DNA of 64,000 nt from an uncultured Bacteriovoracaceae bacterium (GCA_964598565.1 CAZRCG010000006.1:37624-101623); one strand, 5' to 3'. Shown: positions 10,459 through 45,672, numbered from the stretch's first letter. Made by a program: numbers and translations. Notes: generated from the letters alone by a model not told the origin.

Positions 10459-10505
10459 CCTGACCATACCCAATAAATGGCGGACCATTATTGGGTATGG
10501 TCCAG
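10459..10505. terminator. Strong near-perfect hairpin (15-bp perfect inverted repeat gaccatacccaataa/ttattgggtatggtc, extendable to about 19 bp with one bulge) directly downstream of the RluA gene; terminator or protein-binding palindrome
   Basis: Inverted repeat read directly at 10462-10476 and 10488-10502; no strong U-run follows. Confidence 0.45.
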
Positions 10506-10729
10506 CGGCTTCTTAATATTCCTCTGACGCGCAGTTTCTTTCTTTTTGGAGCCCGTTCCACAGGAAAATCTACGTTCATTGAATCCCTACTCCCCGACAC
10601 GAAAGCCATCTGAATTGACCTCCTCAACCCAGACCAAGAGACTGAGTTCTTAAAAAATCCTAGTCGCCTAGATTATCGAGCGGGGCAGAGCAAGACCCTT
10701 TGCAATTGAGATAAAGTCTTCAAACGTCG

Positions 10730-12385: not shown

Positions 12386-12397
12386 AAGGACGTCTCC

Positions 12398-15556: not shown

Positions 15557-15560
15557 ACCG

Positions 15561-23567: not shown

Positions 23568-25130
23568 TTACGGCTGGATCACCTCTATAAGGCGCGCCGC
23601 ACGTTCAGGACTAAAGCCGTGAAAAACGGGTGAGTCGGCAGGGCCTACGTTCGAGGAGTAGCCGATGATATCGTGAGAGGCGGGCAGTGGCTTGATACCC
23701 GAAAAAATCCATTGAGATTTTTGAGGCAATTCCTGGGGTGATTCTTGAGACGATTCTTGAGGAGCTTTTGAGCCCCCCGCAGGCTTAGGCCATGGGCTCG
23801 AAACCACCGTCTCTTTAAACTCAACCAAAAGACCTCGGTCGAATTGTTGGCTATTATTCTTAACAATGATTCCGTAGGCACGACGGCCTGACCCATCATC
23901 TTTCGAAGGCTGCGAGATCATCTCGGGTCGACTCACAATTTCAACTCCCGGATACCCCGCATTTAGCAAATGCCTATTTAGGGACTCCCATGACGCCCCC
24001 ATGGCTTTCCCGACTTGCGCATGAAACGGAGTTGTCATGACGTGAATCATTTCTGTCTGAAGGGCCTCTGAAATAATTTCACGTTGCTGAAGGTCGTTTG
24101 ATTCGGCGGCAAGAGCCCAAGCGTTCAGTTCAGACTCTAAAGACTTAGAACCTAACTGATGTATCAGAGAACCTCCGGCGAGCAGGCCGGCTGCAAGACT
24201 CAGGCCTTTAAGACGAGACCCACAAGAACGAAAATCTGAATAACTTCTCCACTCGGAGCCACTCATCTCTCGAGATGCTCGCAGCACCTGTCGACGTTCT
24301 TGAAAACTCCGAACCGTTTGTCTCAAATGGTTTCGATAGGTCTTTTCACTTGAAAGTGTCCATGAGCCCGCTTCGATGGCACTCTGCCTTTTTGCACCTA
24401 GTGCTTCGACGGCATTGATGGTCTGTTCCCACGGCTTCAAGATAAGTGATCCCACACGACCATAGTCTTTTTCAAAGGCTTTCTTTATTGAGACCAACAT
24501 CTGATTTTGTCGGCGCGCCGCATGAAGAGTCTGTTGAAATGCGGGCGACTGATTGCGAATCAACGATCTATCAGGCGCCGATAATTTTTTAGAGGTCATC
24601 CATTCTTGTATCTTCGATTCTTGAAGGCCCCCACTCGACAGGCTAAGGAGCCTGGATGATCTTAAACCTGCGTTTTGAAAACTGGGGGCCAAATTAGTTT
24701 TGGACGATAAGAACGTTTTCAGTTTCTGAACAGCGAACGGAACTGCCGCCAATACAAGAAGACTCTCGGTAAGTGTCACGACATCCAGCGAATCCCCATA
24801 GCGCTGTAAGACCGACGAATTATTCCACTCTTGTATTTTGGCCTGATAAGCTTGCGGCGATCGTTCGTAGACTTGAGCCGTCACCTCCGACGAAAGCTCT
24901 AAAGGACTCTGTTGGAGAGCGCGTTCGATGAGGCGTATCTCCGTGGGCGACCAAGAATCATCGGCTACCGAGGCTTGCAGTAAAATGGCCATGAAGACAG
25001 CGAAACCTACGGTAAGGAGACGCAAAAATGGCTGCGATAATTTGCACGCCGATAAGCAGGTTTCTAACGACGTACACAAGCTAAAGATCATACGCTCTAT
25101 ATAGAGAGCAAAGACTGTGCCAAATATCAA
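23568..25130 (-). CDS. Hypothetical protein, low-complexity Ser/Gln-rich, probably secreted or membrane-anchored
   Basis: Long ORF (520 aa) with N-terminal hydrophobic segment; no recognisable catalytic motifs. Confidence 0.45.
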   Translation of the reverse strand: MIFGTVFALYIERMIFSLCTSLETCLSACKLSQPFLRLLTVGFAVFMAILLQASVADDSWSPTEIRLIERALQQSPLELSSEVTAQVYERSPQAYQAKIQEWNNSSVLQRYGDSLDVVTLTESLLVLAAVPFAVQKLKTFLSSKTNLAPSFQNAGLRSSRLLSLSSGGLQESKIQEWMTSKKLSAPDRSLIRNQSPAFQQTLHAARRQNQMLVSIKKAFEKDYGRVGSLILKPWEQTINAVEALGAKRQSAIEAGSWTLSSEKTYRNHLRQTVRSFQERRQVLRASREMSGSEWRSYSDFRSCGSRLKGLSLAAGLLAGGSLIHQLGSKSLESELNAWALAAESNDLQQREIISEALQTEMIHVMTTPFHAQVGKAMGASWESLNRHLLNAGYPGVEIVSRPEMISQPSKDDGSGRRAYGIIVKNNSQQFDRGLLVEFKETVVSSPWPKPAGGSKAPQESSQESPQELPQKSQWIFSGIKPLPASHDIIGYSSNVGPADSPVFHGFSPERAARLIEVIQP

Positions 25131-28927: not shown

Positions 28928-29475
28928 GGCCCATCAGACTGAATCCGCCGTTTCAATGAGTCGTTTGGCGTGATCAAATCTCCAGCACGAATCTTCCAAT
29001 GCTTGGCAAGACCACCGCGAATTTCAAGAACATGATGAACCGGATTCTTTGAGCGCTGTGGAGATTCCGTCAGAGGTTCTGCATTTTCAATGAGAGAATC
29101 GACAATCCAACGCGGCTTCTTTTGGGCATCTAATTCAACTCGAATAAAAATCATATCGAGAGAAATGAGAGTATTTTTCATCCAAAAACTTCGAAGCTCA
29201 GCTCTTTGCCCTATGAAAAGCATCCCTTCATGATCGGCCAATTTCTTTTCGTACATAAGACCGCGCTGCCATTCGTTCGGGCTAATCGCCAAACGCAAAT
29301 AGATAGTTTGACCTCGAATCGTCACCGAGGGCCTGTCGCCGAGAGGTTGAGCTACGAGCGGCTGACCGATGCAAGCTGCGAATGTCGCACACAAAAGAAT
29401 CTGCCCTAGAGCTCGTTTTGCCAATGCCCTAGCCCCAAAACAGTGTTTGGCAACAGTTTCATTAACGAACTTCAT
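28924..29475 (-). CDS. DUF192-family protein (secreted); start placed at internal ATG
   Basis: Signal peptide then GMLFIGQRAELRSFWMKNTLISLDMIF, matching the DUF192 (COG1430) core pattern. Confidence 0.65.
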   Translation of the reverse strand: MKFVNETVAKHCFGARALAKRALGQILLCATFAACIGQPLVAQPLGDRPSVTIRGQTIYLRLAISPNEWQRGLMYEKKLADHEGMLFIGQRAELRSFWMKNTLISLDMIFIRVELDAQKKPRWIVDSLIENAEPLTESPQRSKNPVHHVLEIRGGLAKHWKIRAGDLITPNDSLKRRIQSDGP

Positions 29476-30562
29476 GGAGAAACCGCTGCAAGAGCCCCAT
29501 CGGGACCAAACCCGAGAACCGCCTGCCATTTAAGAAAAAGGTGGGTGTGCTCTCTATATTAAGTTCTTGGCCCACACGCACGATCGACAATAGACGCTCT
29601 TGGGTCTCGGGCTCTTGCATACATCGATCAAGCGCCCCTCGGTCGATCCCAATTTCGGGGAACCACTCCCCCATTGAAACCAGCCGTTGTCCCTTCAAAA
29701 CTCTTTCGAAGATCGCGTCGTGCAAGGCCCATGATTTATCTTGCTGTTGAGCACAGAGAACCGCCTTTGACCACTCACAGGAATAAGGATGCACGGGACG
29801 AGGCAACTTTGAATTGCACGCAGAATCTAAGGGATACGGAAAAAAAACATAGGTAATATCGGGCTGACTCTTTATGAACGGAACAATGACTTGATTGGCT
29901 TTAGCACAGAAAGGGCAACCAAAATCCGAAAATTTTACGACGGTCAGTCGACTTTGATCACTGGCCTTATTCATTAACGGCGAAACCAAAGGCACGACTT
30001 CTTCATAAGCCAGCCATCGAGAGAACTCCTCTTCCGAAAATCGCTTCGACAAAATCGATCGCTCATGGGCTACAAAGGCGGCAAGACCCAAAACGACCAC
30101 AAAGACGGCCGTCACAGCGGCTCGCACAGAGATGATGCGAGAAAAGCCCTTCCAACCAATCACCGCCATCAACCCAATCAGCCCATAGGAGACATAACAC
30201 ACGACGCAACCTGCTTCGACGACAATAACTAAATACGCGCCCATAAAAATGGCCATGGCCATACCAAAGGCCAGCCAGCCGCGAAGATAGCGTGTACCCA
30301 AGAGGGCCAAAATCGCCGCTAGCAAAAACCAAAAGGCCCCAAAGACGCCAATCGGTATCGAAAAAATCGACCCCGCCGCTGAGAGACTGGCTCGATCGCA
30401 GTTCCAGTAGGCACTAATGGTACAGGCCGACGCACCAAGTCGATCGCCACTAAGAAGTGCAAAAAAATCATTCGCAGACCAAAGCAGCGCTGCGCATCCC
30501 GCCGCCGCCGCCAACAAAAAAATAATACGCCGCACCGATGACATGATATTCATCCTGCACAA
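29462..30562 (-). CDS. Vitamin K epoxide reductase (VKOR) domain fused to a DsbA-like thioredoxin domain
   Basis: N-terminal polytopic region with CxxC (CVVCY) followed by periplasmic thioredoxin-like domain with FGCPFC active site. Confidence 0.8.
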   Translation of the reverse strand: MCRMNIMSSVRRIIFLLAAAAGCAALLWSANDFFALLSGDRLGASACTISAYWNCDRASLSAAGSIFSIPIGVFGAFWFLLAAILALLGTRYLRGWLAFGMAMAIFMGAYLVIVVEAGCVVCYVSYGLIGLMAVIGWKGFSRIISVRAAVTAVFVVVLGLAAFVAHERSILSKRFSEEEFSRWLAYEEVVPLVSPLMNKASDQSRLTVVKFSDFGCPFCAKANQVIVPFIKSQPDITYVFFPYPLDSACNSKLPRPVHPYSCEWSKAVLCAQQQDKSWALHDAIFERVLKGQRLVSMGEWFPEIGIDRGALDRCMQEPETQERLLSIVRVGQELNIESTPTFFLNGRRFSGLVPMGLLQRFLHEVR

Positions 30563-30711: not shown

Positions 30712-31626
30712 ATGCAAAAAATAGGGCTCTTCTTTTCATCGCTGCTTCAAACCATGCAGAGGCATCAGTCGGCGCTGTGGCGCTGGGCCACCTTGGTGAC
30801 CGTTACTTATTTTCTTGCCAGAGCCATCAATACGGTGGTGGCCTACTACTATTTTCCGATCGAAGCTCCGCCGCGAAAAATTAGTACTGAACCCCTCACC
30901 GCCCCCAAAGAGACTAATACCCAGGTGATCACCTCTCGAAACCTCTTTGATTCTGAAGCTCCGGGCCGTCTTCGAAACGCCTTTACAAATGCCACCACAG
31001 CGATTGTACCGAGTCAGCTGCCTCTGGAACTTATTGGCACGGTCGTTTTTCAAAACTCTCGTTTCTCGGTCGCTCTGATTCGCGAGCGTAGCCAAAAAGG
31101 AGCCCAGTATTATGCTTTGGGTGAGCAAGTGCTGAGCGCTCGAATCCACAAAATTGAGCGGCATCGCGTTATATTAGAAAACGGCGCACGATTAGAAAGT
31201 CTTGAACTAAAAGCGGCCGAAAGCAAACTTTCTGCGTCTAAACCTCTATCGAGCCAACCCACGATAGGCATTTCGCCTGCCACAGATTTTGAAGAACTCA
31301 GCCCCAATCGTTATGTGATTCCTCAGAGCACCGTCGACGATGTGCTTGCTAATTTCAATTTAGTGCTCACGCAGGCACGAATGGTTCCAAATATTACACC
31401 TGAAGGCAAGACCGAGGGCTTCAAAGTCTTTCAAATTCGTGATGGGAGCATTTACCAAAAACTCCAAATGAAGGATAACGATATCATTCGTCGCGTCAAT
31501 GGCGTCGATCTCGATACATTTGAGAAAGCGACGGGTCTTTTTACCGCATTGCGCAATGAAAAATCTATTTCCATCGATTTAGTCCGCAATGGACAAAGGA
31601 TAAACTATACTTATGAAATTCGTTAA
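30712..31626 (+). CDS. Type II secretion system protein C-like (N-terminal TM, C-terminal PDZ)
   Basis: Single N-terminal TM segment, C-terminal PDZ-like region (DNDIIRRVNGVDL); overlaps the start of the secretin gene. Confidence 0.55.
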   Translation: MQKIGLFFSSLLQTMQRHQSALWRWATLVTVTYFLARAINTVVAYYYFPIEAPPRKISTEPLTAPKETNTQVITSRNLFDSEAPGRLRNAFTNATTAIVPSQLPLELIGTVVFQNSRFSVALIRERSQKGAQYYALGEQVLSARIHKIERHRVILENGARLESLELKAAESKLSASKPLSSQPTIGISPATDFEELSPNRYVIPQSTVDDVLANFNLVLTQARMVPNITPEGKTEGFKVFQIRDGSIYQKLQMKDNDIIRRVNGVDLDTFEKATGLFTALRNEKSISIDLVRNGQRINYTYEIR

Positions 31627-34267
31627 GGTTTTGGCGATCGTCGCCCTGCTTCCTCTTTCACTTGAAGCTCAAGATGATTTCATCGAAAACGAAGGGAGCG
31701 CCCCCGATATGGGAGGCCTTTTCGACGAAGAGCTCGAACCTCTCGAACCTCAACCAGCCCCCGCGGCACCAGAACGTCCAAGCCCACAAGCTCGCGCTGT
31801 TGAGTTTCCGGAAGCCAAAAAAGTAACGTCCAATTCTGGCAAAAGGGTTTCCGATCTTCCCGCCGGTGCGATTCCCAATAGCCATGAAAAACTGCGCATG
31901 GATTTTGTTCAGGTCGAAATGGAAGAGTTAGTGAAATATTTCGCCGAGCGTTTGAAGAAAAAATTCATTTATGATCCAGCAGGCCTTCAGGGAAAAATCA
32001 CAATTATTTCTCCAACCGAAGTCACGCTGCAAGAAGCTTGGGGCGCCTTTCTTTCGGCTCTCGAAGTTCGCGGTTACGTGGTCTATCCTGCCGGGGCCTA
32101 TTTAAAACTAGAGAAAGCCGCCAACGCGCGAAAATCGGCTGTTCCTGTCATGGACGGTGTCACTCCCAACGACGACAGTTATGTCACCCGCATCATCACG
32201 CTTAAATATCTTCAGGCGAACGATATTCAAACGGCGGTGCGCACCTTGTTGTCTCGCACAGGTGGCGATCTGATCGTTCATCCTCCCACCAATACACTCA
32301 TTGTGAGCGATTATGCGTTCAATATTCGTCGAGTTATTCGTATCTTGAATATCCTCGATGTCGAAGGATTCCAGGAGCAAATAGAGATCATCACTCTCAG
32401 AAATGCCTCCGCCCAAGATATCGCTAAGAAAGTAAGCGACTTTTTCCCATCGGGCTCGTCCGCGGCCCCCTCTGGTCCAGCGGCGCGTCGTCGACGGGGT
32501 GCTGAGTCGGACGGCGTGATTCAAAAGGTGGTTGCCGACGAACGAACAAATTCTCTTATTGTACTTGGTAGTGAACGGGGCATTGAGCAAGTACGGCGTT
32601 TTGTCACTCGTATTGATGTACCTACCGAAAGTGGCGGTGGGCGCATTCACGTGTATCCCGTTCAAAATGTGAAAGCGAAAGACATTGCGGCAACACTTTC
32701 GGCGCTCACAGCGGCCAAAGGCACGACCTCCCGCTTTCCTACCCCCATGCCAAATATGCCTCCGATGCCCGGGTCTGCTGAGCCTGATGTGGCAAATCTT
32801 GGAGACGTTAAAATTACCGCCGACGAAGCCACCAACTCGCTGGTCATTCAGAGTTCTCCTCGTGACTTCGAAATTCTTAAGTCCATTATTCGAAAATTAG
32901 ATATTCGACGACGTCAGGTATTTATCGAGGGTGCGATTTTAGAGGCGTCAGTTTCAAAGGGCTCCAGTTTCGGCATTCAGGCCGCAGGCCCTCTCGCTCA
33001 AACCTCGGCGTTACAACGTGGCACGGGCCCCAACTCAGGCATCGTGGGAACACTCAACGGTCTAGGCTTTGATTCACTTCTTACCGGAGCCATGCGAGAT
33101 CCCAAGATGCTAACAGGTATGGCTCTGGGTTTTAGGTCGGGCGGCAATTACGAAGTAAACTACCGCGATAGTACCGGTGCTTCTAAAACGATGGAGCTGC
33201 CGCTGCTGTCGGCAGTTCTTCAACTGGCGGCCGTTAATACCGGGGTAAATGTTTTATCGACGCCCCATATTCTGGCCACGGCAAACGAAGAGGCATCGAT
33301 CATCATCGGAAATGAAGTCCCTCAGCTCGCCGGAACCGAAACCACCACCGGAGGCAATGTCTCTCGCAATATTACACGAATGCGAGTAGCGACGGAGCTG
33401 AAGATCAAACCTCAAATCAATGCGGGTGATTATTTAACTTTAAAGATTGATCAAAAAATTGACGATGCGGGCGAAAAATTTCCGGATGGCAATATTTCAA
33501 CCGTAAAACGCGAAGTAAGCACGACAGTCATTATCAAAGATCAACAAACGGTCGTCATTGGCGGCCTCATGCGCGATCGAAAGCGAACCGTCGTATCGAA
33601 GGTGCCCTTCTTGGGGGATATTCCCATTTTAGGCTGGTTATTTAAAACAAGGTCGACCGATACAGAAAAAGTAAACCTCATATTGTTTTTAACCCCCTAT
33701 ATTATTCGCAATACGGGCGATATGAATGATCAGTTCTTTAGAAAACTTAAAGACCGAGAGGGTTTCTTAAAGGATATTGGAATCGGCGAAATGAAGGGGG
33801 TTCCTTCTTTGGGCTTAACCGATGTGCAAAAGAAACTACTCGACCCTGAGTATGTGAAGAGCCTCGATCAATCTCATGTTCCTGCTGAGGCAAAGACGCC
33901 AGTTTCAGACAGTGACAAAGATCCCTTGGATTCGCTTTTGAAGAACGAGTCCGAAGCAAACTCTAAGACGGCACCTGAGACAGCGGGCGAGGCGAATTCT
34001 TCGCTCGTACCCGCCACTTCCGATAGTTCAACTGCACCCGCTACGTCGCCCGAACCAGCGCATGAAAAGATCTTTGTGCCTCGCATGTCGACACCATCGT
34101 CAGGCTCAGTAAGCCCCGCGGAAAGTTTTCGGCCTTCTCCAGGTTCAGATGTTCTCGATGGCATGCCCCCTCCTCTCGGGCTGCCTCCTTCACCGCTCGA
34201 TTTACCACCGCCCGAAGGTGCTGAAGATTTTTTCATTGATACCCCTCCTCCGGGTGAGAACCCTTAA
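31613..34267 (+). CDS. gspD: Type II secretion system secretin GspD with long Pro/Ser-rich C-terminal tail
   Basis: N0-N3 domains and secretin core (VPFLGDIPILGWLFK); about 150 aa low-complexity C-terminal extension. Confidence 0.9.
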   Translation: MKFVKVLAIVALLPLSLEAQDDFIENEGSAPDMGGLFDEELEPLEPQPAPAAPERPSPQARAVEFPEAKKVTSNSGKRVSDLPAGAIPNSHEKLRMDFVQVEMEELVKYFAERLKKKFIYDPAGLQGKITIISPTEVTLQEAWGAFLSALEVRGYVVYPAGAYLKLEKAANARKSAVPVMDGVTPNDDSYVTRIITLKYLQANDIQTAVRTLLSRTGGDLIVHPPTNTLIVSDYAFNIRRVIRILNILDVEGFQEQIEIITLRNASAQDIAKKVSDFFPSGSSAAPSGPAARRRRGAESDGVIQKVVADERTNSLIVLGSERGIEQVRRFVTRIDVPTESGGGRIHVYPVQNVKAKDIAATLSALTAAKGTTSRFPTPMPNMPPMPGSAEPDVANLGDVKITADEATNSLVIQSSPRDFEILKSIIRKLDIRRRQVFIEGAILEASVSKGSSFGIQAAGPLAQTSALQRGTGPNSGIVGTLNGLGFDSLLTGAMRDPKMLTGMALGFRSGGNYEVNYRDSTGASKTMELPLLSAVLQLAAVNTGVNVLSTPHILATANEEASIIIGNEVPQLAGTETTTGGNVSRNITRMRVATELKIKPQINAGDYLTLKIDQKIDDAGEKFPDGNISTVKREVSTTVIIKDQQTVVIGGLMRDRKRTVVSKVPFLGDIPILGWLFKTRSTDTEKVNLILFLTPYIIRNTGDMNDQFFRKLKDREGFLKDIGIGEMKGVPSLGLTDVQKKLLDPEYVKSLDQSHVPAEAKTPVSDSDKDPLDSLLKNESEANSKTAPETAGEANSSLVPATSDSSTAPATSPEPAHEKIFVPRMSTPSSGSVSPAESFRPSPGSDVLDGMPPPLGLPPSPLDLPPPEGAEDFFIDTPPPGENP

Positions 34268-34311
34268 AGGAGAAGCCTTCGAGAAGAACTCTTCGAGGAG
34301 AATCGACCATT

Positions 34312-36201
34312 ATGTCTGAAGAAAAAACCGACGTTCTCCAACTGACCGAACCCATCTCTCCCACTCTTGAGACGACCGATCGTCAGACGTCGAATCCAAA
34401 AGAGCATCCCGGTGACAGAGATAGCAACTTGATTTCTCACCGTGAGCGATTGCGAGAAAGTTTAGCGGACCGCAGCATTCATATTGATTCAGCAGAAGAA
34501 CTCGATCTAGGCGAGCTACTCATTAAAGCCGAATTCATTAACGAAGACCAACTGGCTCAAGCCTTGCAGATTCAGCAAGAACGCGGCGGCTCCACTCGAC
34601 TCGGTGAAGTTCTCATGCAAATGAAGGCGATCACCGAAGCCCAACTTCTTGAGTTGCTAGCCAAACAACTGGGCATACCATTTGTACGATCCATTCACGA
34701 CCGAGATATTCCCGAAGAACTCATTAAGAAAGTTCCGACCCGTTTCGCAAAAAAATTTCAGATGCTTCCTATAGCCTACCGCCATAATGGAGTTTTGGTG
34801 GTCACCTCCGATCCGCTCAACGCGACTGCGCTTGATGATATTCGACTTCTTTTGGAGATGCCGGTGCAAGTAGCGGCCACCCCGAGCGCCGTGATTGTAG
34901 AAGCAATCAATCGATCGTACGATCGAGCCAGCACGACCGATACATCGATGGAAGACTTAGGCCAAGATGTTATTGATGACGGCGCACTTCAAGAGCCCGT
35001 CGATCTCTTAGATTCCGAAGATGAGGCCCCAATTATTCGGCTGGTCAATTCGATTCTGTTTAGAGCCGTCAAAGAGCGAGCCAGTGATATTCACGTCGAG
35101 CCCTACGAGCGAGAAGTATCGGTTCGGTTTCGAATCGACGGCAATCTCTACGATATTTTGAAAATTCCAAAGAGACTTCAAAACTCGGTAGGCTCGCGCA
35201 TCAAACTCTTGGGGGCTCTTAATATTGCGGAGAAGCGTTTACCTCAAGACGGTCGCATTCGAATCAAGATCGCCGGCAAGGACGTTGACCTGCGTCTATC
35301 GACCCTGCCGACAGCTCATGGCGAGCGCATCGTTATGCGTATTCTCGACAAATCGTCGATTGTTCTCGATTTGACGAATTTGGGATTTGAAGAGTCTATG
35401 CTTCGTGCGACCGAAGAACTTATCACGAAACCTTTTGGAATCATTTTGGTCACTGGCCCTACGGGCTCAGGAAAAACGACCACCTTGTATGCGGCCCTCT
35501 CAAAAATTAACAAAGAAGATATTAATATTATTACGGTAGAAGACCCCATTGAATACCAATTGCCCGGCATTGGACAAATTCAAGTTAATGAAAAGATCGG
35601 ACTCACCTTTGCGAATGGTCTTCGATCAATTTTACGTCAAGACCCCGATGTGGTGCTCATCGGAGAAATTCGAGATCGAGAAACCGCCGAGATTGCCGTC
35701 CAGGCCTCTCTCACAGGTCACTTGGTTTTATCTTCGATTCACACCAACGATGCCTGTTCATCGGTGACCCGTTTGGTCGATATGGGCGTAGAGCCCTTTC
35801 TTGTATCCACCTCGCTTATTGGTATTGTGGCTCAACGACTCGTGCGCCGTATTTGTTCCGCTTGCCGAATCCCCCATCAAGCGACGAGCGATCAATTGGC
35901 TCGTTTGGGCTTAGACAAAATTCCTTCGAAAGCCACCGTCTACAAAGCCGTGGGCTGCGACGAATGCTATCATACGGGCTACCGTGGTCGAGTGGGTATC
36001 TACGAACTTCTACCCATTGATGATGAACTGCGATCGGTCATTTTAAAGACCCCCGATGCAGTTCATTTACGAAAGTCGGCCATCGCCAAGGGCTTTAAAC
36101 CCATGCGCTACGATGGCCTCTTGAAGATTCTTCAGGGGGTGACCACTATTGAAGAGGTACTGGCCACCACTCAAGAAGACTCTCGTGTTGATTTTGGTTA
36201 A
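34312..36201 (+). CDS. gspE: Type II secretion system ATPase GspE
   Basis: Walker A GPTGSGKTTT, Asp and His boxes, C-terminal CxxC tetracysteine motif (CSAC ... CDEC). Confidence 0.9.
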   Translation: MSEEKTDVLQLTEPISPTLETTDRQTSNPKEHPGDRDSNLISHRERLRESLADRSIHIDSAEELDLGELLIKAEFINEDQLAQALQIQQERGGSTRLGEVLMQMKAITEAQLLELLAKQLGIPFVRSIHDRDIPEELIKKVPTRFAKKFQMLPIAYRHNGVLVVTSDPLNATALDDIRLLLEMPVQVAATPSAVIVEAINRSYDRASTTDTSMEDLGQDVIDDGALQEPVDLLDSEDEAPIIRLVNSILFRAVKERASDIHVEPYEREVSVRFRIDGNLYDILKIPKRLQNSVGSRIKLLGALNIAEKRLPQDGRIRIKIAGKDVDLRLSTLPTAHGERIVMRILDKSSIVLDLTNLGFEESMLRATEELITKPFGIILVTGPTGSGKTTTLYAALSKINKEDINIITVEDPIEYQLPGIGQIQVNEKIGLTFANGLRSILRQDPDVVLIGEIRDRETAEIAVQASLTGHLVLSSIHTNDACSSVTRLVDMGVEPFLVSTSLIGIVAQRLVRRICSACRIPHQATSDQLARLGLDKIPSKATVYKAVGCDECYHTGYRGRVGIYELLPIDDELRSVILKTPDAVHLRKSAIAKGFKPMRYDGLLKILQGVTTIEEVLATTQEDSRVDFG

Positions 36202-36429: not shown

Positions 36430-38505
36430 GTGAATTCGTCGTTATTGGCATCGATTGTTTTTTTTCTTTCATTCGTATTTTCAACAGATAATCTCAGGGG
36501 TGGAACCCCGCCCAGAACCAAAGTCGCTCGCCAGGGTATCTATGTCGTTAAGCAACTGGTGACTCCCGATTTTGACCTCCTCCCCCTTCATCGAAAACTT
36601 TTTGCTTACTATTTGAGTAAAGCTATCTCGGCTGGTCGAGACATCGCATGGACTCAACATTCAAAGGGTGGTCTCGAAATTAGACGACTCTTAGAGGGTA
36701 TTTACGCTCATTCCGAATATCTTTCTCCAGTTCAAAAAGCTGCGCTTGAGCAATACTTTTTTAAGGTGCTCCGAAGCCATGGAAACTACGATAAGAAAAA
36801 GAATGAGAAGTTCATTCCTGAGGATCTAGATTTTAAGACTTTTCTTAGAATGGCGGAAAGTGCGGAGGCTGCTGCTAAGAAAAAGGGCGTCATTCTGTCG
36901 CTCGTCGACCAAGCCAAGTCGCTTGAGAGAAATATTTTTGATCTGTCTTATAGGAGAGCTTATCAAGCGAATGCCCCCGCGGATTTAATCGCCGACACCA
37001 ATAGCAATTACTATGGCGATGGTGTGACACAAGCCGATCTCGAATCCCTACCTGAGAACTTGAGAGATCACTTCCTTAGTTATCCCTATAAAGAAGGTAA
37101 TGAAGTCAAAGTGGAGCTCCATCGCATAAATGGGCGTTTCGATCGCGAACTTCGGGCGGTGCACTATTATTTTGAACGGGCGAAACAATTTGCTACCGAG
37201 GAGGAAAAGACGATCATTTCGGCTTTTCAAAAGGCTATTGAAACTGGAGATCCCAAAGATGATTTAGCAGCCGAAGAGCTTTGGGTTCAATACCAACCCG
37301 TCGACATCGACTTCGTTATTGGCTTCAAAGAAGTTTATGATGATCGCCTAGGCAAGCGGGGAGCTTGGGAAGGCTTTATTCTTTTGAAAACACAGAACCC
37401 TGAGACACTTCACCGTACAAAACAGATTCGCTCCAATTCAAACTACTTCGAAGAACAGATGCCTGTGAACCCTGCCTACAAAAAGGCTCCTGGTTTTACG
37501 CCACCCCATGCTGAAGGTGCCTATCTTCTCTTTAGTGGCGGTGCCAGCGGAGAAACTCCATTTTCTGGGGTTAACCTTCCCAATGATCCGTCGATTCGAG
37601 AGCGTTTGGGCTCAAAAAGTTTTACCGCCATCAATGTTATGAATCCGATCGGCCCGAAGGACAAAGCAGAGGCTGCGCTAGAAAACAGAACATTCTATCA
37701 TCCCCGATACTGGGAGGCATTGAGTGAGTGGAACGACGTTCTTGCGGGGGATCTTATGGTGGAATTTCACGAAATTTTGGGCCATGGCTCAGGAAAAAAT
37801 ATGGAAGGAATCACCGATTTAAATCTCAAGGACTATTATAGCTCTCTCGAAGAAGCGCGAGCTGAAATTGCCGCTCTTTACCACGTGCTTGACCCTAAAT
37901 TAATCGAGCTTGAGATCCTCCCGAAGATGACGCCTGAGGCCTTTGCAACTTTTACTGAATTGGTTGTGGTCGATTTTTTTACGAGCCATATTGGTAGCTA
38001 TCGACTTCTTGCTGACACCACGGAGCGAATTAATCAAGCCCACCAATGGGGTCGGCAAGTGATACTCAACCATTTGCTGGCAGGTGGATCATTAAAAATC
38101 TCTTACTCAGAATCAGGCACACCTCTCGTTGAAATCACTGACCTCGCTAAGATTCGTAACGACTTAGGCACCTTGTGGCGAGATATTCAAGAAGCAAAAT
38201 CTACCGGCAATTATGAGATGGCCAAGTCGCTTTTTGAGACACTAGGAGTCTATGGTGATTTACATCGACAGTGGAGGGTCGGGATTAATGCTGCCACTGC
38301 AAAATTAAATTTGCCCAAGGAGGGCGCCTTTTTGAATCCACGCTTCGTTGTGAAAGAGAATTCAGACGGCTCCCCACAGGCCGTGCGACTGAGTTATCAT
38401 CGTGGAAAAGGTTTAGGAGTTTTCTTAGACGCCCAACTTAAAATGGCAGAAGAAAATGAACGTCTCTTGAAGTGTAGAGACTCTTTTAAGGCAATGGCAA
38501 GATAG
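36430..38505 (+). CDS. Secreted zinc metallopeptidase, M49 (dipeptidyl-peptidase III) family
   Basis: HEILGHGSGK (M49 HExxGH zinc motif) and downstream EEARAE second zinc-ligand motif; N-terminal signal peptide. Confidence 0.8.
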   Translation: MNSSLLASIVFFLSFVFSTDNLRGGTPPRTKVARQGIYVVKQLVTPDFDLLPLHRKLFAYYLSKAISAGRDIAWTQHSKGGLEIRRLLEGIYAHSEYLSPVQKAALEQYFFKVLRSHGNYDKKKNEKFIPEDLDFKTFLRMAESAEAAAKKKGVILSLVDQAKSLERNIFDLSYRRAYQANAPADLIADTNSNYYGDGVTQADLESLPENLRDHFLSYPYKEGNEVKVELHRINGRFDRELRAVHYYFERAKQFATEEEKTIISAFQKAIETGDPKDDLAAEELWVQYQPVDIDFVIGFKEVYDDRLGKRGAWEGFILLKTQNPETLHRTKQIRSNSNYFEEQMPVNPAYKKAPGFTPPHAEGAYLLFSGGASGETPFSGVNLPNDPSIRERLGSKSFTAINVMNPIGPKDKAEAALENRTFYHPRYWEALSEWNDVLAGDLMVEFHEILGHGSGKNMEGITDLNLKDYYSSLEEARAEIAALYHVLDPKLIELEILPKMTPEAFATFTELVVVDFFTSHIGSYRLLADTTERINQAHQWGRQVILNHLLAGGSLKISYSESGTPLVEITDLAKIRNDLGTLWRDIQEAKSTGNYEMAKSLFETLGVYGDLHRQWRVGINAATAKLNLPKEGAFLNPRFVVKENSDGSPQAVRLSYHRGKGLGVFLDAQLKMAEENERLLKCRDSFKAMAR

Positions 38506-38577: not shown

Positions 38578-40476
38578 CTAACGATGAAAGAGATTCGGCA
38601 CCGAAGGCAGCTTTTTCTGAAGGTTTTGAAGTCCCTCACCCACTTTAGACTCAACCGCACGCTGAGAACGGGCTTTCAAGTCGGCTTCGAGTTTTTTCAC
38701 CTCACGCACTTGCGCATCCAAGAGCGACTGCAATTCATTGGCCTTGGCCTGCACATCACTCGAGAATCGGTCTAATTCATCGAGTGATTTCTTTTTATAA
38801 ACGTCTAAGCGGTTCTCAATTTCTCTCTGAAGTCGCGCTTGAAGATCACTCAACTTTTTCTTTAGCTGAGCCTCAATACCTTGTTTTACGAGAGCGTCCA
38901 TATTGCTCTCGACAGAGAATCCAAGATCCTTGTCATTGAGTTTCATGGTGATTGTCAGAAAGAAATCGTTCACCCCTTTAAAGATATCTTGCAAGATCGG
39001 CACTAAAATACCCTTGTTGGGCACCTCTGAAAAATCCCAGCGCACGTTCGCAAACGATACTTTAGTCGCCCATGAAAAATCACTGCCTTCAAAACGAAGA
39101 TCCGAATCGCTTGCCAGCATCCCCTCTCCCAATCGAACTGGAAATAGACGGGGAATCCCGACCGGCCATGCCTCAATCTTGATTCCTTCAACCGAAGTTT
39201 TAAAGCGCTCTCGATCGACTGCCTCCGTATAATTAAGATCAGCAGTGAACGAAGCTCGCTCGAGCAAGGAGTCTTTCAGTTCAGCTTTTAACGCTACGAG
39301 TGTCGGCTTTCCATAAAGCTTCGGATTAGAGTTCACATCTCGCACCTTGAGCTGGTAAAGCTGATTGACCACTTTACGATCGCCATCTTGAAGACCCTTC
39401 ACACTAAACTCAGACTTTGCCCACACAAAGGAGGGCTGTTTTTTTTCTGTTACAAAAATAATATCTCGTCCTTTGGCGCGCTGTTTCACTTCAACCTTCG
39501 GATCGGGTGACGAAGCCGTCATAAATCGCCGTAGTTTGGCATGAAAGCGAAGAACCTCTTCGGCGCGCTGAATCCATACATCCCCAAAAAGAAGTCGCGA
39601 AAGATTAGAGACTTGAAGGTCTTCAAGACCTACCAGCCGCTGGGCCCGCTCGATATCCGCCTTGAGAGCGGCCTCCGCCTTATCATAGTCTGCCTTGACG
39701 CGTGAATAATCGCTGCGAGCCGCTCCCATCAGCTCATCAACCTTTTTCTTTTCATCCTCAAAAAAGGTTTGTAGTTCTCTCGCCGTCTGAAGGGCTGAGA
39801 CAATGGCCTGAGGATCTTGCGGTGGATTAGACGTAAGGGCTTTTACTTCTCGAGCCCGCCGTTGATATTCTGAAATATCCCTAAAAGCCTTATAGCGCTC
39901 TACCCACTCGCCTCTGAGCTTCTGAGAGGTATCCACCATCGCCATAAACACTTTTTCAGATTCGAGATTAAATTCTTTCAGCAACTCACGCGGGCTATCG
40001 GGCAGACTAAAGTTTGTCCATTTAGAAACCGGGGTTTTAGCCATCTCCTTTTTTAGTGAGCCCATCGCCACGTCCAACTGCTCGCTGAACCACGATGGCT
40101 CTTTAGATTTTTTTCGAGGAGGAAGTCGCCCGGAGGTACGACGCTTCGTGCCCCACTGGATACCCTTCAGTGAAAAATCGTCTACAACGACTCGTTTTCT
40201 CAAAAGAGGAAGCGCTTGAAAATCGACGACGATATCTTCGAACTCCAAGAGATTCTTCCATTCATCATTCTTGGAAGCGATCTCGAGTCGATCGATCGTT
40301 AGGCTTGAATTCTTAAACGAAATCGTGAGAGATCGGATATCTGTTTTAGTATCCGTGATGGCGGATATACCATCTTCAATCCAACCTTTCACCCAAGCAT
40401 CGATGCGGTACAAAACCACAAAGGCCACCAAAACCACCAAAAGAAACGCGGGAATGAACACCTTAAATCGAATCAT
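38578..40476 (-). CDS. Hypothetical membrane-anchored protein with AsmA/DUF748-like N-terminal region and long coiled-coil C-terminus
   Basis: N-terminal TM FIPAFLLVVLVAFVVL; helical heptad-rich C-terminal half; start overlaps the stop of the upstream DUF2062-like gene. Confidence 0.5.
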   Translation of the reverse strand: MIRFKVFIPAFLLVVLVAFVVLYRIDAWVKGWIEDGISAITDTKTDIRSLTISFKNSSLTIDRLEIASKNDEWKNLLEFEDIVVDFQALPLLRKRVVVDDFSLKGIQWGTKRRTSGRLPPRKKSKEPSWFSEQLDVAMGSLKKEMAKTPVSKWTNFSLPDSPRELLKEFNLESEKVFMAMVDTSQKLRGEWVERYKAFRDISEYQRRAREVKALTSNPPQDPQAIVSALQTARELQTFFEDEKKKVDELMGAARSDYSRVKADYDKAEAALKADIERAQRLVGLEDLQVSNLSRLLFGDVWIQRAEEVLRFHAKLRRFMTASSPDPKVEVKQRAKGRDIIFVTEKKQPSFVWAKSEFSVKGLQDGDRKVVNQLYQLKVRDVNSNPKLYGKPTLVALKAELKDSLLERASFTADLNYTEAVDRERFKTSVEGIKIEAWPVGIPRLFPVRLGEGMLASDSDLRFEGSDFSWATKVSFANVRWDFSEVPNKGILVPILQDIFKGVNDFFLTITMKLNDKDLGFSVESNMDALVKQGIEAQLKKKLSDLQARLQREIENRLDVYKKKSLDELDRFSSDVQAKANELQSLLDAQVREVKKLEADLKARSQRAVESKVGEGLQNLQKKLPSVPNLFHR

Positions 40477-41018
40477 GAAAAAGCACTCAAACGGTTACGG
40501 AAGTTTTCGTATTTTAAATAGACTCCATACAGCGGAGTTGCCTTGAGCGACTTGACCAAGGCACTCTTTTGAATCTGCTCGCGCCATTTACTTCGATAAA
40601 TTTTTATAAAATGAATGCCCGCGACAAAGAGCGGTACGAAGAGCAAGAGTCCAAAGCCGAGCGATCCCATGACAATGGTATTGTTGAAATTGAAAAAGGG
40701 CCAAATGGCTCCCGTGGTAATGCTAATCCAAAACGGACGCAAAGAAGTAAAATCAACCAGTAGCCAGTAGCCCAATCGATCAAAGATGGGGTCGCCAAAA
40801 AACCCCAGAATACTAAAGAACGCTAAGCTCATAAAAAACATGGAGAAGTTCACTCGGAACAAACAGACAATCATAAAAATAAAGAGATTGTGCAAACTGA
40901 GAAAGGGGCTGAGACCCACCAACATTCCAAACGTCATTCCAGCTGACAATTGCGAAGGGGCTGTTTCAGAGTTCAAAAGTTTAATAAGACTATTCAGAGT
41001 CTTTAGAAGAAAAAACAT
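40473..41018 (-). CDS. Small polytopic membrane protein, DUF2062-like
   Basis: About 4 hydrophobic segments, GMTFGMLVGLSPF ... FFGDPIFDR pattern; translationally coupled to the downstream 632-aa gene. Confidence 0.55.
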   Translation of the reverse strand: MFFLLKTLNSLIKLLNSETAPSQLSAGMTFGMLVGLSPFLSLHNLFIFMIVCLFRVNFSMFFMSLAFFSILGFFGDPIFDRLGYWLLVDFTSLRPFWISITTGAIWPFFNFNNTIVMGSLGFGLLLFVPLFVAGIHFIKIYRSKWREQIQKSALVKSLKATPLYGVYLKYENFRNRLSAFS

Positions 41019-41078
41019 TCTCCACTATTAAACCTGAGACGATATTCTTCGCCAAGAGAAACCCCTGAAAGTTTACCT

Positions 41079-42863
41079 CTATGAACGACTCTGCAGAGCA
41101 AGAACCAAACGGTGAAAGCCTCCTGGTGAATCCAACGCCGTCTTACCCACCGCCTTAAAAGCATTGTCCGCCCGCTCTTTATAAGTCGCCTCATGCGTGA
41201 GCGCCGCCAATTTATACAGAGCTTCGATCGCTACGGCATAGGCCGACGGCAGAGCCCCATCGCGCACCGTCTTATATCGCACCAAAAGATCCGAGACACT
41301 CTCAGCCGTAAACCAGAAGCCACCCTGCGTTTCATCTGAAAAGGTTTTGATTAGACGGTCCACCGTCACACGGGCCCGATCAAGCCAGAGCTGAGACGCC
41401 TCGCCTTTCATTGATTGAGCGAGATCTAAAAATCCCAAAGCTCCGTAGGCCGAATCTTCTAAGAAAGAGAACGCCTGACGCGAATCTGCCAGATGCCAAA
41501 GCCCCCCTTTGTCCGTATTATGAAGAGTCCAAAGTCGGTTGGCAGCCCTTTCTGCCATCGCTCGCCAATCTTCGATGCCAACGACAGTCGAAGCCCTTGC
41601 GAGTGCCGAGATCATAAGCCCGTTCCACGATGCTTGAATTTTTGTGTCGGTCAGTGGTCGAGTCCGCTGCATTCGTGCGCGCTTCAAAGACTCGAGAGCG
41701 CCTAAAAGCGATTCTTCTTCGGCGAGAGAGAGTGCTTCTTTAGTCACCAAAACTCGCCGACCTTCTAAAACGGCCCCCTCGTCATCGAAACGAAATAAGC
41801 GAGCCAGCTCTTGTTGCTGCTCAATACTATGTCCGCCGGCTCCGAGGACCTGCGCCCATTCATCCAGACTCCACGTATAAAAGAGGCCTTCTTCATGGTC
41901 GCTGTCGGCATCGATGGCCGAGAAAAAACCTCCGTCGCTGGCCGTCATCTCACGACGAATCCACTCAACCGTTTTCTTTAGGACTCGTTCCACTCGCGCA
42001 CAGGTTCTGAGCTCCAGGAGTTCGGCTCCCCAGAGCAGCATCAAGGCATTGTCATAGAGCATCTTCTCAAAATGCGGCACCTTCCAAGCGCGATCGGTTG
42101 AGTAACGATGAAATCCCCCTTCAAGTTGATCAAAAATACCGCCCGCCGCCATTTTTAGATAACTGCGATAGCTAAGGTCGAACGACTCTTCATGACCTTT
42201 GAATCGCCGAGATTCACGAATCAATAGTCGAAAGGCATCGACATGAAAAAACTTAGGGGCCGTGCCTAAGCCCCCTTCTTCAGCGTCGATCTGCGCTTTG
42301 ATATTGAGAAGCACTTTATTTTCGAGTTGATCATCTATCTCGTCGACGCGATCAAAGAACTGGGATTCCTGCGCCAATAAATGTGCCACTTGAAGAGCGT
42401 TCTTGGCCACAAGGTCTCGTTGTTCTTGAAACGTGGCCGCTACCCGCAGCAAAACATCTCGAAAAGGTGGGCGCCCATAGCGAGCATCAGGAGCAAAGTA
42501 GGTTCCCCCAAAGAACGGTTTGAGGTCGGGGGTCAAAAATATTGTTAAGGGCCAGCCTCCCTGTCCTGTCATCATTTGCAAGGCGGACATATAGACATGA
42601 TCTAAATCGGGGCGCTCCTCTCGGTCGAGCTTGATCGAAATGAAGTGGTCTTTGAGGATTTTGGCCACCCGCTCGTCGCAAAAGCTTTCACGCTCCATGA
42701 CATGACACCAATGACAGGTCGAATAGCCGATACTTAAGAAAATGGGTTTGTTTTCAGAACGCGCTCTTTCAAGTGGCTCGGGGCCCCAGGCATACCAATC
42801 GACAGGATTGTCTTTGTGCTGCAACAAATAGGGGGAACTTTCGTTGGCAAGACGATTTTGCAT
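41079..42863 (-). CDS. Thioredoxin-domain protein of the YyaL/DUF255 family
   Basis: N-terminal [39 protein letters not shown] (thioredoxin-like with CxxC) followed by six-hairpin glycosidase-like region. Confidence 0.85.
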
Positions 42864-42980
42864 GGAATCTACCCTAATGGGCCAGCAAGTTGTGGGTCGA
42901 TGCCTAAATCAGCGGAATTTATCTTTCGGGGCTTTTCTTCTTGAAATGCTTGGAAGTTCTTCTTAACGTGAAGGGGCTCC

Positions 42981-44480
42981 ATGGGGTTAATAAGCCTGCT
43001 AAAGCTATTTAAAGGAAAGAAAAAGGAGTCGAAGACCAGAATGAAGAGCGCCCGAGCCTTAAAGCAGAAATCACGTTCACTTAAAAACCCTGCCACCAAG
43101 GCCGCCAAAAAGCCCCCGAAGGCTGTCTCTTCAAAATCATCGTCTAAATCTTCCAAGACCGCCGCCATAAAAAGCACGGTCCCAAAGTCGGTCAAAGAAG
43201 CAGCGTCAAAAGTGGTGTTAACGAGCAAAGCTGGAAAGGCCCTCGCTTCAAAAAGTTTAAAGAAAATGGAAAGTCCCACGATAGAAAGAAAGCCTCTGAC
43301 TGCCAAAAAAGGGGACGCCAAAAAGGTAGACCTTTCTAAAAAAGGAGACGCCAAAAAAATCGACGCAAAGTCGTTGAGCCAGCCTTTTGAGCCATTTATG
43401 GCACAGTGGAAGCCCAAGGCCGAGTCGTTTGACGTCGCGCTCGACCGATTTTTTGATACGGCGGGCATTGAAGCCGCTGACAGTCGCGAAGCCACGCTCG
43501 AGAAACTCCTGTCGGCGATGCGTAAGCAGGAACTACCCGCTCTAGCCGAAGAATTGCTTTTGGAGCGCTATCAGCGTGACCGCGTGCATAAACTATTCTC
43601 TATTCTGTCGATGCGCCCCAAGACGACGGTGCGCCTCAATTTCTTGCGGGCCGATTTGGTAGGATTCTCTGAGAGTCAGGTCGCTAAGGACCTCAAGATC
43701 AAACGTTCGTCGCTTAGTCCTTGGTCTTTTGATGTGGCGAAACCCGAACTACTGTCATCCCATCCATCGTACGGGAAGGGTCTCTATGAGATTCATGAAG
43801 AAAGCTCGCAGCTCATCGCCCTTTTGTCGAACGCGCGTCCGGGTCAACGTATTTTAGCACTCAATGCAGGATCGGGTGAGGCGGCTCTCACTATGGCCAC
43901 CATGATGAAAAATACGGGCTCTCTCTTTGTCTACGAAAGTGACCCAAAAAATATTCGGCGGTTTAAAGAAATGGCCGAGCGCGCTCCTATCGATAACTTC
44001 AGACTATTGTCCGATAACCAGATCGGCGAAGTAAAGAGTCTTGATACCTGTGTCATTCAGGCTCCCTCCACGGGTTTGGGACTCTTAGCCCATCATCCTG
44101 AGTTAAAGTGGAAGCTGAGCAAAGAAGAATCATCTCGTCTTCAAAAACTGCAAGCCGCTCTCTTGAGAGAAGCCGGTCGAAAGTTGAAATTGGGTGGCTA
44201 TATCATTTATGCCAGTCATACCCTGGATAAGAGTGAGAATGAAAACCAGATCGACCATTTTATTCGGGGATCTCATTCGTCGTTTCGTTTAGTATCGATG
44301 TCGACGCACTTAAAGGATTTTGTCATACCCTACATGACCAATCACTTTCAATTTTCATGGGACGATAAAACCTATTTGTCTCTGATTGAGAATGATCCGT
44401 TCTTGCTATTATCTCCGGATGTCCAAGGAACGGCGGGACTCTTTGTGAGCGTACTTCAGCGAATTCGCATCAGTTCGTAA
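42981..44480 (+). CDS. RsmB/NOP2/Sun-fold protein with substituted catalytic cysteines and Lys-rich N-terminal tail (predicted non-canonical or inactive RNA m5C methyltransferase homolog)
   Basis: Clear motif IV and VI homology (CVIQAPSTGLGLLAHHPELKW; LKLGGYIIYASHTL) but PC is PS and TC is SH; motif I is ILALNAGSGEAAL rather than DxCAAPGGKT; first ~120 aa are K/A/S-rich. Confidence 0.7.
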   Translation: MGLISLLKLFKGKKKESKTRMKSARALKQKSRSLKNPATKAAKKPPKAVSSKSSSKSSKTAAIKSTVPKSVKEAASKVVLTSKAGKALASKSLKKMESPTIERKPLTAKKGDAKKVDLSKKGDAKKIDAKSLSQPFEPFMAQWKPKAESFDVALDRFFDTAGIEAADSREATLEKLLSAMRKQELPALAEELLLERYQRDRVHKLFSILSMRPKTTVRLNFLRADLVGFSESQVAKDLKIKRSSLSPWSFDVAKPELLSSHPSYGKGLYEIHEESSQLIALLSNARPGQRILALNAGSGEAALTMATMMKNTGSLFVYESDPKNIRRFKEMAERAPIDNFRLLSDNQIGEVKSLDTCVIQAPSTGLGLLAHHPELKWKLSKEESSRLQKLQAALLREAGRKLKLGGYIIYASHTLDKSENENQIDHFIRGSHSSFRLVSMSTHLKDFVIPYMTNHFQFSWDDKTYLSLIENDPFLLLSPDVQGTAGLFVSVLQRIRISS

Positions 44481-44610: not shown

Positions 44611-45672
44611 ATGCGACTCTCTAAGAACAACTACGATAGCTTGGCAGGACTATTATCGGTTCGATCGTCTTCTCAATCGTATGCCGGCATCGCTCGAGGT
44701 TCAGATAGGCGCTCCATTGAAGGTCAAAGAAACCAAGCAAGGATCGAGACGCCGAAAAGCCCTATAGAGCTGCTTCCTTCACACGAAAGTCCCACTCAAA
44801 TTGAGCGCCTGAAGACCCTGGGCTCAGGCTCACTGGTCGATAGCCAGCGCCGTCATGAATTTCGGGGACCAGCCATTTCGTACGAGATAGACACGTCACT
44901 CTATAAAAACTATCTCGACCGGGTTCAGGGGCGGGCGTCGCAAGAAGTCGGGCTTGTTCAACCTGAATTTTTAGGACTCGATAGAGAGCTCGAAGAGGCC
45001 CCTCTTTCGAATACTGATATCTCGCTTACTCAGGATGATCTTCATTTTCTTCGCGGCGCAATCGAATCGGCACTTTCAAGAGCGCTGCGAGATAATCGAG
45101 AATCTACCGAAGACGATATTAATTCGTTTGTAGATGAATCATTTGGATCTGGAACGTCCGAGATACTCGCTGCATCGCGAGTCGATGTGGGCGATGGCCA
45201 CTCGGAAATGCGAATAAGTCAAATCGCCATCGAAGACTTATCTCAAGATGACAAAGAGACCCTTGCCCTGGCGTTCACCAATGCCAAAATGTTTTTCGTT
45301 CAGACCCAAGAACCTCGCCCAATCATCCACAATCTTGAAGTAGCTTCTAAGATGAAGTCGCTAGAGAACCTCTTAGGCCCTGTCTATCACTCCGAGATGA
45401 ATAAGCTAGCCCAGGGCCTTTCAGGATCTGGCGATGGTGGCCCGAGTGAGGCCCTGGCACGGCTGCGCCAAACTATAGAAGACGATACGACTTTAAGCTT
45501 CTCTGTACAGAATCAGGCTCTCGAGCGAATCGATGAACTGTCTGAATTTGCGGAATCTCTGAAGAATACCGTAAGCTCTCCACCCCTATTTGAAGACCTC
45601 GTTATAAGCTTCAAAAGCGGCTCTTATCGACGGGCCTTCACGCCCGATGAGATTCTCTCCGTTTTGGAGTGA
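44611..45672 (+). CDS. Hypothetical protein (acidic, no recognised domain)
   Basis: 353-aa ORF between convergent/divergent neighbours; no motif matches. Confidence 0.4.
   Translation: MRLSKNNYDSLAGLLSVRSSSQSYAGIARGSDRRSIEGQRNQARIETPKSPIELLPSHESPTQIERLKTLGSGSLVDSQRRHEFRGPAISYEIDTSLYKNYLDRVQGRASQEVGLVQPEFLGLDRELEEAPLSNTDISLTQDDLHFLRGAIESALSRALRDNRESTEDDINSFVDESFGSGTSEILAASRVDVGDGHSEMRISQIAIEDLSQDDKETLALAFTNAKMFFVQTQEPRPIIHNLEVASKMKSLENLLGPVYHSEMNKLAQGLSGSGDGGPSEALARLRQTIEDDTTLSFSVQNQALERIDELSEFAESLKNTVSSPPLFEDLVISFKSGSYRRAFTPDEILSVLE

Follow-up and report, generated by a model that had tools for sequence, protein, structure and literature searches.

A conserved TIGR03546-TIGR03545 gene pair from an uncultured Bacteriovoracaceae bacterium: a two-gene inner-membrane unit with a possible role in handling envelope lipid

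TamB, YhdP and YdbH are bacterial AsmA-like proteins, and lipid is thought to enter the groove of each from the inner membrane, at an N-terminal module equivalent to the one described below (PMC10345924). The known partners of these three proteins, TamA and YnbE, belong to the outer-membrane side of the envelope (PMC10345924, PMC11126948). Questions raised in the field are how phospholipids pass from the inner membrane into AsmA-like carriers, whether dedicated inner-membrane partners exist, and whether scramblases or floppases of that membrane work with these proteins (PMC10345924). A second described system is the pairing of the families TIGR03546 and TIGR03545, for which fused forms were reported in 2014 from Nautilia profundicola (NAMH_0533) and Francisella tularensis (FTT_0505) (PMC4035852). 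Beyond this, FTT0505 appears in the literature only as a membrane protein with no cysteines that co-purifies with FipB. Here, a further pair of this kind is described from a 64,000-nucleotide stretch of DNA (hereafter the window; GCA_964598565.1 CAZRCG010000006.1:37624-101623) of an uncultured Bacteriovoracaceae bacterium, with positions counted from the first letter of the window. On the minus strand, the window contains a gene for a 181-residue polytopic inner-membrane protein of the TIGR03546 subfamily of DUF2062 (small subunit; 40473-41018), followed by a gene for a 632-residue N-terminally anchored protein of TIGR03545 (large subunit; 38578-40476), and upstream of both a gene for a 594-residue YyaL/DUF255 thioredoxin-domain protein (41079-42863). 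The two membrane proteins very probably form an obligate inner-membrane complex that does not depend on YyaL. That this two-gene complex handles envelope lipid is the best overall explanation at present, although we give it slightly less than an even chance.

The three genes had been described in the initial annotation as tightly linked on one strand, with a 60-bp gap and then a 4-bp overlap, and this layout is reproduced both by the open reading frame (ORF) table and by an independent gene call on Logan contig SRR15237806, which covers the region. The gap between the YyaL and small genes is located at 41019-41078. The small and large genes share the sequence ATGA at 40473-40476 (minus strand, read as ...TTTTC ATGA TTCG...), in which the stop codon of the small gene shares bases with the start codon of the large gene, and through this overlap the two genes are likely to be translationally coupled. 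The large gene is convergent on its 3' side with a gene for an M49 peptidase, and a divergent gene for an RsmB-type methyltransferase sits upstream of YyaL. The base composition of the region is unremarkable, and scans for promoters and terminators were uninformative, with counts equal to those expected from shuffled sequence.

The assignment of the two membrane proteins to TIGR03546 and TIGR03545, which the initial annotation had suggested, was borne out by hidden Markov model (HMM) searches. The small protein scored 128.9 bits against TIGR03546 (cutoff 79.45, E 1.5e-37), with residues 7-159 aligned to positions 2-153 of the 154-position model, and the large protein scored 229.3 bits against TIGR03545 (cutoff 173.35, E 8e-68), with residues 1-557 aligned to positions 1-542 of 556. 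Related loci were gathered by a genome scan and by exact-protein-sequence look-ups, and the window proteins were then located in them. Loci were obtained from Bdellovibrionota, Treponema and other Spirochaetaceae, Arcobacteraceae, Nitrospirota, Ignavibacteria and several metagenomic lineages. The positions of both genes could be read in 27 loci, drawn from five or more phyla, and in every one of them the small gene lies immediately ahead of the large gene on the same strand, overlaps it or is joined to it in a single ORF; conservation of this neighbourhood had been set beforehand as a test that could have refuted the pairing. The usual junction is an overlap of 4 bp or 1 bp (seen in L001-L008, L022-L025 and L027), and the window, with its 4-bp overlap and the small gene first, follows the same pattern. 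Every named host of the pair is a diderm.

Fusion of the two proteins into a single polypeptide is recurrent. A search of 1.84 billion cluster representatives with a profile of the small protein retrieved 2106 clusters at E <= 1e-3, 1290 of them at E <= 1e-10, and about 23 of the top 150 representatives (~15%) are fusions of 577-811 residues with the small domain at the N-terminus. All eight of the long proteins tested hold TIGR03546 and then TIGR03545, so that the order, small then large, is fixed. Examples include proteins from a Leptospirillia metagenome-assembled genome and from Desulfurispirillum indicum (Selin_0246), and in the Arcobacteraceae locus L017 the pair is one ORF of 583 residues. 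In Treponema (L009-L016 and L026), the small and large ORFs share a reading frame in at least eight of nine loci. Where the junction was read, in L014 (5194-6060) and L026 (3702-4400), they are separated by one stop codon and four codons (...AAKKD*GGNIMKKIP...), an arrangement that may reflect the recent splitting of a fusion, or else possible readthrough of the stop codon. Taken together, the universal adjacency, the likely translational coupling and the recurrent fusion in one order argue strongly that the two proteins form a physical complex, and on these comparative grounds the functional unit is two genes, TIGR03546 then TIGR03545, rather than three. The genes flanking the pair are unrelated between lineages: Treponema, for example, has MatE and OmpA, Ignavibacteria have an ABC-2 transporter, and TrkH, tRNA synthetases or toxin-antitoxin genes occur elsewhere. 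A conserved third gene was considered and rejected, as OmpA and ABC-2 are lineage-specific and nothing recurs across phyla. In the Ignavibacteria loci L024 (6466-8659) and L025 (3074-5267), the ABC-2 transporter genes, for an ATPase and an ABC2_membrane_3 permease, start from the base after the pair and may be a lineage-specific extension of the operon.

Could the three genes instead be chance neighbours, or a unit of three? That they are chance neighbours or mis-called ORFs with no real functional unit behind them has a negligible probability, and is already refuted by HMM scores far above the curated cutoffs for both membrane proteins, by homologs numbering in the hundreds to thousands, and by the 27 loci described above. 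The proposal of the initial annotation, that YyaL is functionally coupled to the membrane pair in an envelope module for redox, assembly or repair, deserves closer weighing. The first gene is indeed a clear member of the YyaL/DUF255/SPATA20 type with a CxxC-containing N-terminal domain (PF03190, Thioredox_DsbH, 247.4 bits against a gathering threshold (GA) of 27, residues 2-163), and at 594 residues it is shorter than its relatives (611-663 residues). It ends 60 bp upstream of the pair on the same strand, with no terminator-like or promoter-like site detected in the gap; the relative L002 has the identical direct arrangement; and, among the Bdellovibrionota relatives whose upstream region can be read, five have YyaL at some position upstream. 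Against this, YyaL stands directly 5' of the pair in the window and L002 only. In four of the six Bdellovibrionota relatives whose upstream sequence is readable, a divergent panD gene (aspartate 1-decarboxylase, PF02261, 121-128 bits) intervenes between YyaL and the small gene (L003:4939-5373, L005:4905-5366, L007:372-800 and L008:421-867, all on the minus strand), which points to an insertion, deletion or rearrangement within the clade. YyaL, with the divergent RsmB gene beyond it, was found upstream of the pair in Bdellovibrionota relatives only, and was not found near the pair in Treponema, Arcobacteraceae, Nitrospirota, Ignavibacteria or five further sampled contexts, so that no co-directional linkage holds across genomes. 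Moreover, hydropathy analysis detected neither a transmembrane (TM) or hydrophobic segment nor a signal peptide in YyaL, which places it in the cytoplasm. The large protein contains no cysteine and the small protein a single one outside the conserved columns, so that a thioredoxin-type enzyme would find no conserved thiol in the pair. On the grounds of the panD insertion, the absence outside Bdellovibrionota, the cytoplasmic location and the lack of conserved cysteines, YyaL was rejected as a functional partner. A three-gene operon is thereby largely refuted by the neighbourhood data and is very improbable, and YyaL is a neighbour by virtue of local synteny only, outside the conserved module. 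A role of the pair itself in envelope assembly or repair is plausible.

The small subunit is of the DUF2062 type, as the initial annotation had put it. The window protein itself scored 26.4 bits against DUF2062 (PF09835), 1 bit below the local Pfam GA of 27.4, with positions 8-144 of the 147-position model aligned. For an identical database protein, P0037, PF09835.15 is the precomputed assignment. Each of the 38 aligned homologs matches DUF2062 (best E 3e-14), and one homolog also gave a weak match to BspA. By these matches, the small protein belongs to DUF2062 at the superfamily level. A text match to PF09835 in PMC7818093 proved to be absent from the main text of that paper. The AlphaFold2 (AF2) model of the small protein is compact and all-helical (predicted local distance difference test score (pLDDT) 90.7, predicted template-modelling score (pTM) 0.79). 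It is predicted to begin with an amphipathic helix, followed by paired short hydrophobic helices linked by a conserved G-x-x-P-x-x-S-L-H-N turn, a hydrophobic helix at 58-74, a conserved D-P-x-F motif, two short and less hydrophobic helices, an invariant F-N-N-T turn, and a long final TM helix that runs into a Lys/Arg-rich tail. The invariant polar, glycine and proline residues (S17, P21, G35, P38, N112, N113, G118, P129, Y141 and R142), to which the near-invariant N16, Q23, H43, N44, N57 and D76 can be added, are located at helix ends and in short loops inside the hydrophobic region. The helix pattern and the motifs PF..HN and PFFNFNN brought to mind a DedA/TMEM41B-like kinship or an internal pseudo-repeat. 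Both ideas were rejected, since the 38 homologs gave no DedA or other Pfam signal and the hhalign comparison of the N-terminal with the C-terminal half returned a probability of 0.07%. No solved structural relative of the small protein was found, nor was any sequence or fold kinship to a scramblase detected.

The large subunit begins with a membrane anchor, as had been claimed for it: hydropathy analysis gave a single peak in 19-residue windows (2.85, centred on residues 10-22), preceded by R3 and K5, and AF2 predicted a helix at residues 3-41 that would comprise the TM anchor and a stalk. The model, built on a 30-sequence alignment (pLDDT 76.9, pTM 0.55), continues with five beta-strands at residues 45-108. 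The anchor and first strands (residues 1-111; 40144-40476, minus strand) are the TamB/AsmA/DUF748-like part of the protein. After it comes a helical region (residues 129-319; 39520-40092, minus strand), which is the most variable and indel-rich part in the conservation profile, although it holds the near-universal D274, and part of which is missing in the short fused forms. A low-confidence linker (residues 320-349) leads to the second beta-domain, which is predicted to form nine long antiparallel strands of up to 20 residues (residues 350-524; 38905-39429, minus strand) and which in homologs carries the recent Pfam family PF27335 "TP_0481_C", a name that refers to Treponema pallidum TP_0481. 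The protein ends in a single predicted helix of 97 residues (525-621; 38614-38904, minus strand), charged and amphipathic, that would span ~146 Å if straight. Matches of this helix to ApoA-IV/A-I profiles (E 6e-5 and weaker) are most likely compositional and were not used. The term "coiled-coil" in the initial annotation holds in part. Long helices are indeed predicted at 222-281, 292-319 and 525-621, and heptad-like periodicity stands out at 222-281 (z ~3), whereas it does not in the C-terminal helix. No solved structural relative was found for the helical insert, the TP_0481_C beta-domain or the C-terminal helix.

At the entry to the second beta-domain lies the hallmark motif of the family, and its most widely conserved one, R333-x-x-G336-R-D-I-x-F...P348-x-F (residues 333-350; 39427-39480, minus strand). 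An alignment of 38 diverse members, which included separate and fused forms, has G336 in all sequences (100%), P348 in 97% and R333 in 86%. The only near-universal positions of this alignment are three in the TamB-like module (R3, K30 and L91), two in the helical region (L171 and D274), R333, G336 and P348 in the motif, and P391. Inside the protein, pLDDT falls below 50 in one stretch only (residues 324-339), and the motif lies within this stretch and immediately behind it, which suggests that the motif may become ordered only when a partner or ligand binds.

How far does the likeness to AsmA-like proteins extend? A profile of the large-protein family aligned by hhalign with Prevotella TamB over residues 4-111, corresponding to TamB 6-116 (93.2%, E 3e-7). 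The genome scan had retrieved Prevotella proteins of ~1,560 residues through their first ~104 residues, and these are bona fide TamB (PF04357 at 125-133 bits). Residues 1-130 of the window protein matched positions 17-126 of the 1037-position DUF748 model (E 1.2e-6, 27.3 bits). Matches to the start of DUF748 were obtained with homologs as well as with this fragment, at E 1e-6 to 2e-10 and below the gathering score, and a homolog from Nitrospirota additionally matched positions 4-119 of the AsmA model. Among the 36 homologs of the large protein, the closer ones carry precomputed PF05359 (DUF748) and/or PF27335. The Pfam gathering scores for AsmA, DUF748 and TamB were not reached by the window protein, whose best DUF748 score of 27.3 compares with a GA of 50 and which gave no AsmA or TamB match, so that it is not a demonstrable member of these families in the Pfam sense. 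Nevertheless, it has two features of the AsmA-like clan, namely an N-terminal signal-anchor TM helix and, after it, a module with homology to chorein-N-like modules (by hhalign and the DUF748 match). On the profile evidence, the anchor and first strands are an AsmA/TamB-type module and the remainder is family-specific. The initial description of the large protein as AsmA/DUF748-like thus stands for its first ~110 residues and not for the whole protein.

The fixed order of the fusions and the positive-inside rule would put the small protein's Lys/Arg-rich C-terminal tail in the cytoplasm, together with the start of the large protein, so that the bulk of the large protein would be periplasmic. 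This topology is supported by hydropathy and charge distribution, and by the Lys-rich extension of ~85 residues ahead of the TM helix in the Treponema large proteins. Within it, the following mechanism can be proposed. The small subunit would be a membrane-embedded portal for a lipid or lipid-linked molecule, which it would equilibrate or present at the outer leaflet of the inner membrane. The large subunit would then receive the lipid at its TamB-like N-terminal module, and the beta-sheet and long helices of that subunit might shield it or relay it toward the peptidoglycan or outer-membrane side. Such a hand-off would be analogous to that of eukaryotic bridge-like lipid-transfer proteins (BLTPs) working with membrane scramblases. 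That the pair acts in cell-envelope or outer-membrane biology is reasonably likely, whereas this specific hand-off is possible but on balance doubtful. Its strongest form, a minimal bacterial bridge-like lipid-transfer system in which the DUF2062-type subunit is a dedicated, obligate inner-membrane portal or scramblase, is unlikely.

Several observations weigh against the handling of lipid, and two other functions compete with it. Nothing connects the small protein to lipid. The full-profile hhalign comparison found no second match to the TamB groove, leaving only ~110 of 632 residues TamB-like. The predicted strands are weakly amphipathic by simple alternation analysis, so that the sequence reveals no greasy groove, and the fourteen strands would form a sheet of ~67 Å, too short alone to bridge the periplasm. 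A literature search returned a domain-clustering paper and a proteomics table, with no experiment on any family member, and no functional study was found under TIGR03545/6, TP0481, FTT_0505, DUF2062, DUF748 or COG3216. One competing explanation is a structural or scaffolding complex, in which the large protein would be an anchored periplasmic spacer, tether or adaptor and the small protein its membrane dock or regulator. The long helices could then oligomerise and reach the peptidoglycan or outer membrane, and the beta-alpha-beta-alpha layout loosely recalls membrane-fusion and periplasmic adaptor proteins. However, the large protein gave no family-model or fold match to the HlyD family, and no Pfam match to HlyD/membrane-fusion, OmpA-like, LysM or other peptidoglycan- or outer-membrane-binding domains; and the ABC and OmpA neighbours are each confined to single lineages. 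The helical region, on which scaffolding would depend, is also the part with the lowest conservation and the most indels, and some of it is absent from the short fusions, so that it would be unexpected as the functional core. Conservation is instead concentrated in the TamB-like N-terminus and in the motif with its beta-domain. A scaffold is improbable. Alternatively, the DUF2062-type small protein could be the active component, a transporter or channel that uses the polar residues on its short and broken helices to move a small solute or a lipid-linked glycan, with the large protein as a periplasmic accessory, gate or chaperone. We assign this explanation a low probability, a little below that of the scaffold. 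The handling of envelope lipid by a two-gene obligate complex is retained, tentatively, as the best explanation.

Several other features of the window were also observed. Directly upstream of YyaL is a 208-residue ORF (42869-43495, minus strand), for which the Logan gene call has a 99-residue version. It overlaps the longest RsmB-type ORF (42981-44480, plus strand) along the initial ~170 codons of the latter. The N-terminal ~110-130 residues of the RsmB-type ORF are Lys/Ala/Ser-rich and not conserved, its relatives aligning from residues 114-132, and one of the two overlapping frames is probably a shadow ORF. On the other side, convergent with the large gene, lies the gene for the M49 (DPP III-type) peptidase, with a hydrophobic N-terminus (36430-38505). 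A type II secretion-like cluster just downstream of the pair (30712-36201, plus strand) is transcribed toward it and encodes a GspC-like protein (30712-31626), an 884-residue secretin (31613-34267) whose C-terminal tail is long and rich in Pro and Ser, and a GspE/MshE-type ATPase (34312-36201). A VKOR-thioredoxin/DsbA fusion (29462-30562, minus strand; PF07884 with PF01323/PF13462 in the Logan gene call), ~8 kb from the pair, represents a system that forms disulfides in the periplasm and has no relation to YyaL. An Hsp70 gene and a resistance-nodulation-division (RND) efflux set occupy 8042-16217 on the plus strand, the latter comprising genes for an outer-membrane efflux protein (10730-12385) and a pump of the AcrB family (12398-15556). 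Such housekeeping and efflux genes are ordinary and agree with a diderm host. Two ORFs, 44611-45672 (plus strand, 353 residues) and 23568-25130 (minus strand, 520 residues), had no Pfam match at E <= 1e-5, and the former was also called as a gene, again with no Pfam match, on the Logan contig.

The locus in the window is ordinary for its family, and its interest lies in the module that it represents. In the pair, a TamB-type entry module and a small polytopic membrane protein are coupled naturally and obligately, often by fusion, and the module is spread over many diderm phyla, including the host-associated Treponema, and published in Francisella. If the lipid hand-off is true, the pair would offer a compact and genetically simple system for the step at which lipid leaves the inner membrane, and a role for DUF2062. 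If the bridge-like form is true as well, the AsmA-like superfamily would gain its first identified class of inner-membrane partner, and ATG2-ATG9 and VPS13-XK a counterpart in prokaryotes, with DUF2062 as a new lipid-mobilising membrane fold. If the lipid idea is wrong, the pair would still be a widespread two-component envelope complex with clear target residues, namely H43/N44, N112/N113 and D76 in the small protein and D274 and R333-G336-P348 in the large protein.

What distinguishes this pair from the systems that it most resembles? In ATG2-ATG9 and VPS13-XK/Mcp1, an entry module of the chorein-N/AsmA type is coupled to a polytopic protein of the donor membrane. The likeness of the bacterial pair to these systems is a conceptual analogy only (the bacterial case is discussed in PMC10345924). 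Unlike the eukaryotic BLTPs, the large protein is far shorter, and the small protein shows no sequence or fold kinship to scramblases. With TamB, AsmA and DUF748 proteins, the large protein shares the N-terminal signal-anchor helix and homologous first beta-strands, and with the TamB-type N-terminus also the motif L-P-L-L-x-K-R-x-V-(I/V)-D-E-(L/F)-S. Like AsmA-like proteins, it has an inner-membrane anchor and, by the predicted topology, a periplasmic bulk, and it is so far confined to diderms. It differs from TamB-type proteins in that a ~190-residue helical insert and a family-specific beta-domain are predicted in place of a long uninterrupted groove. Comparison with the solved structures of TamB and other BLTPs gave no match, and the large protein comes with an obligate polytopic inner-membrane partner, which TamB, YhdP and YdbH are not known to have. 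That partner aligns over nearly the whole DUF2062 model and so resembles the DUF2062 proteins, which include Brucella BspA, a likeness that adds no mechanism; within DUF2062, TIGR03546 forms a separate subfamily whose defining trait is the coupling to TIGR03545. Compared with TIGR03546/TIGR03545 themselves, both proteins lie above the curated cutoffs over essentially full models, and the gene order, the overlap and the known fusions agree, with no difference in kind. As the pairing and its fusions were already catalogued, the pair described here is a typical further member from Bdellovibrionota.

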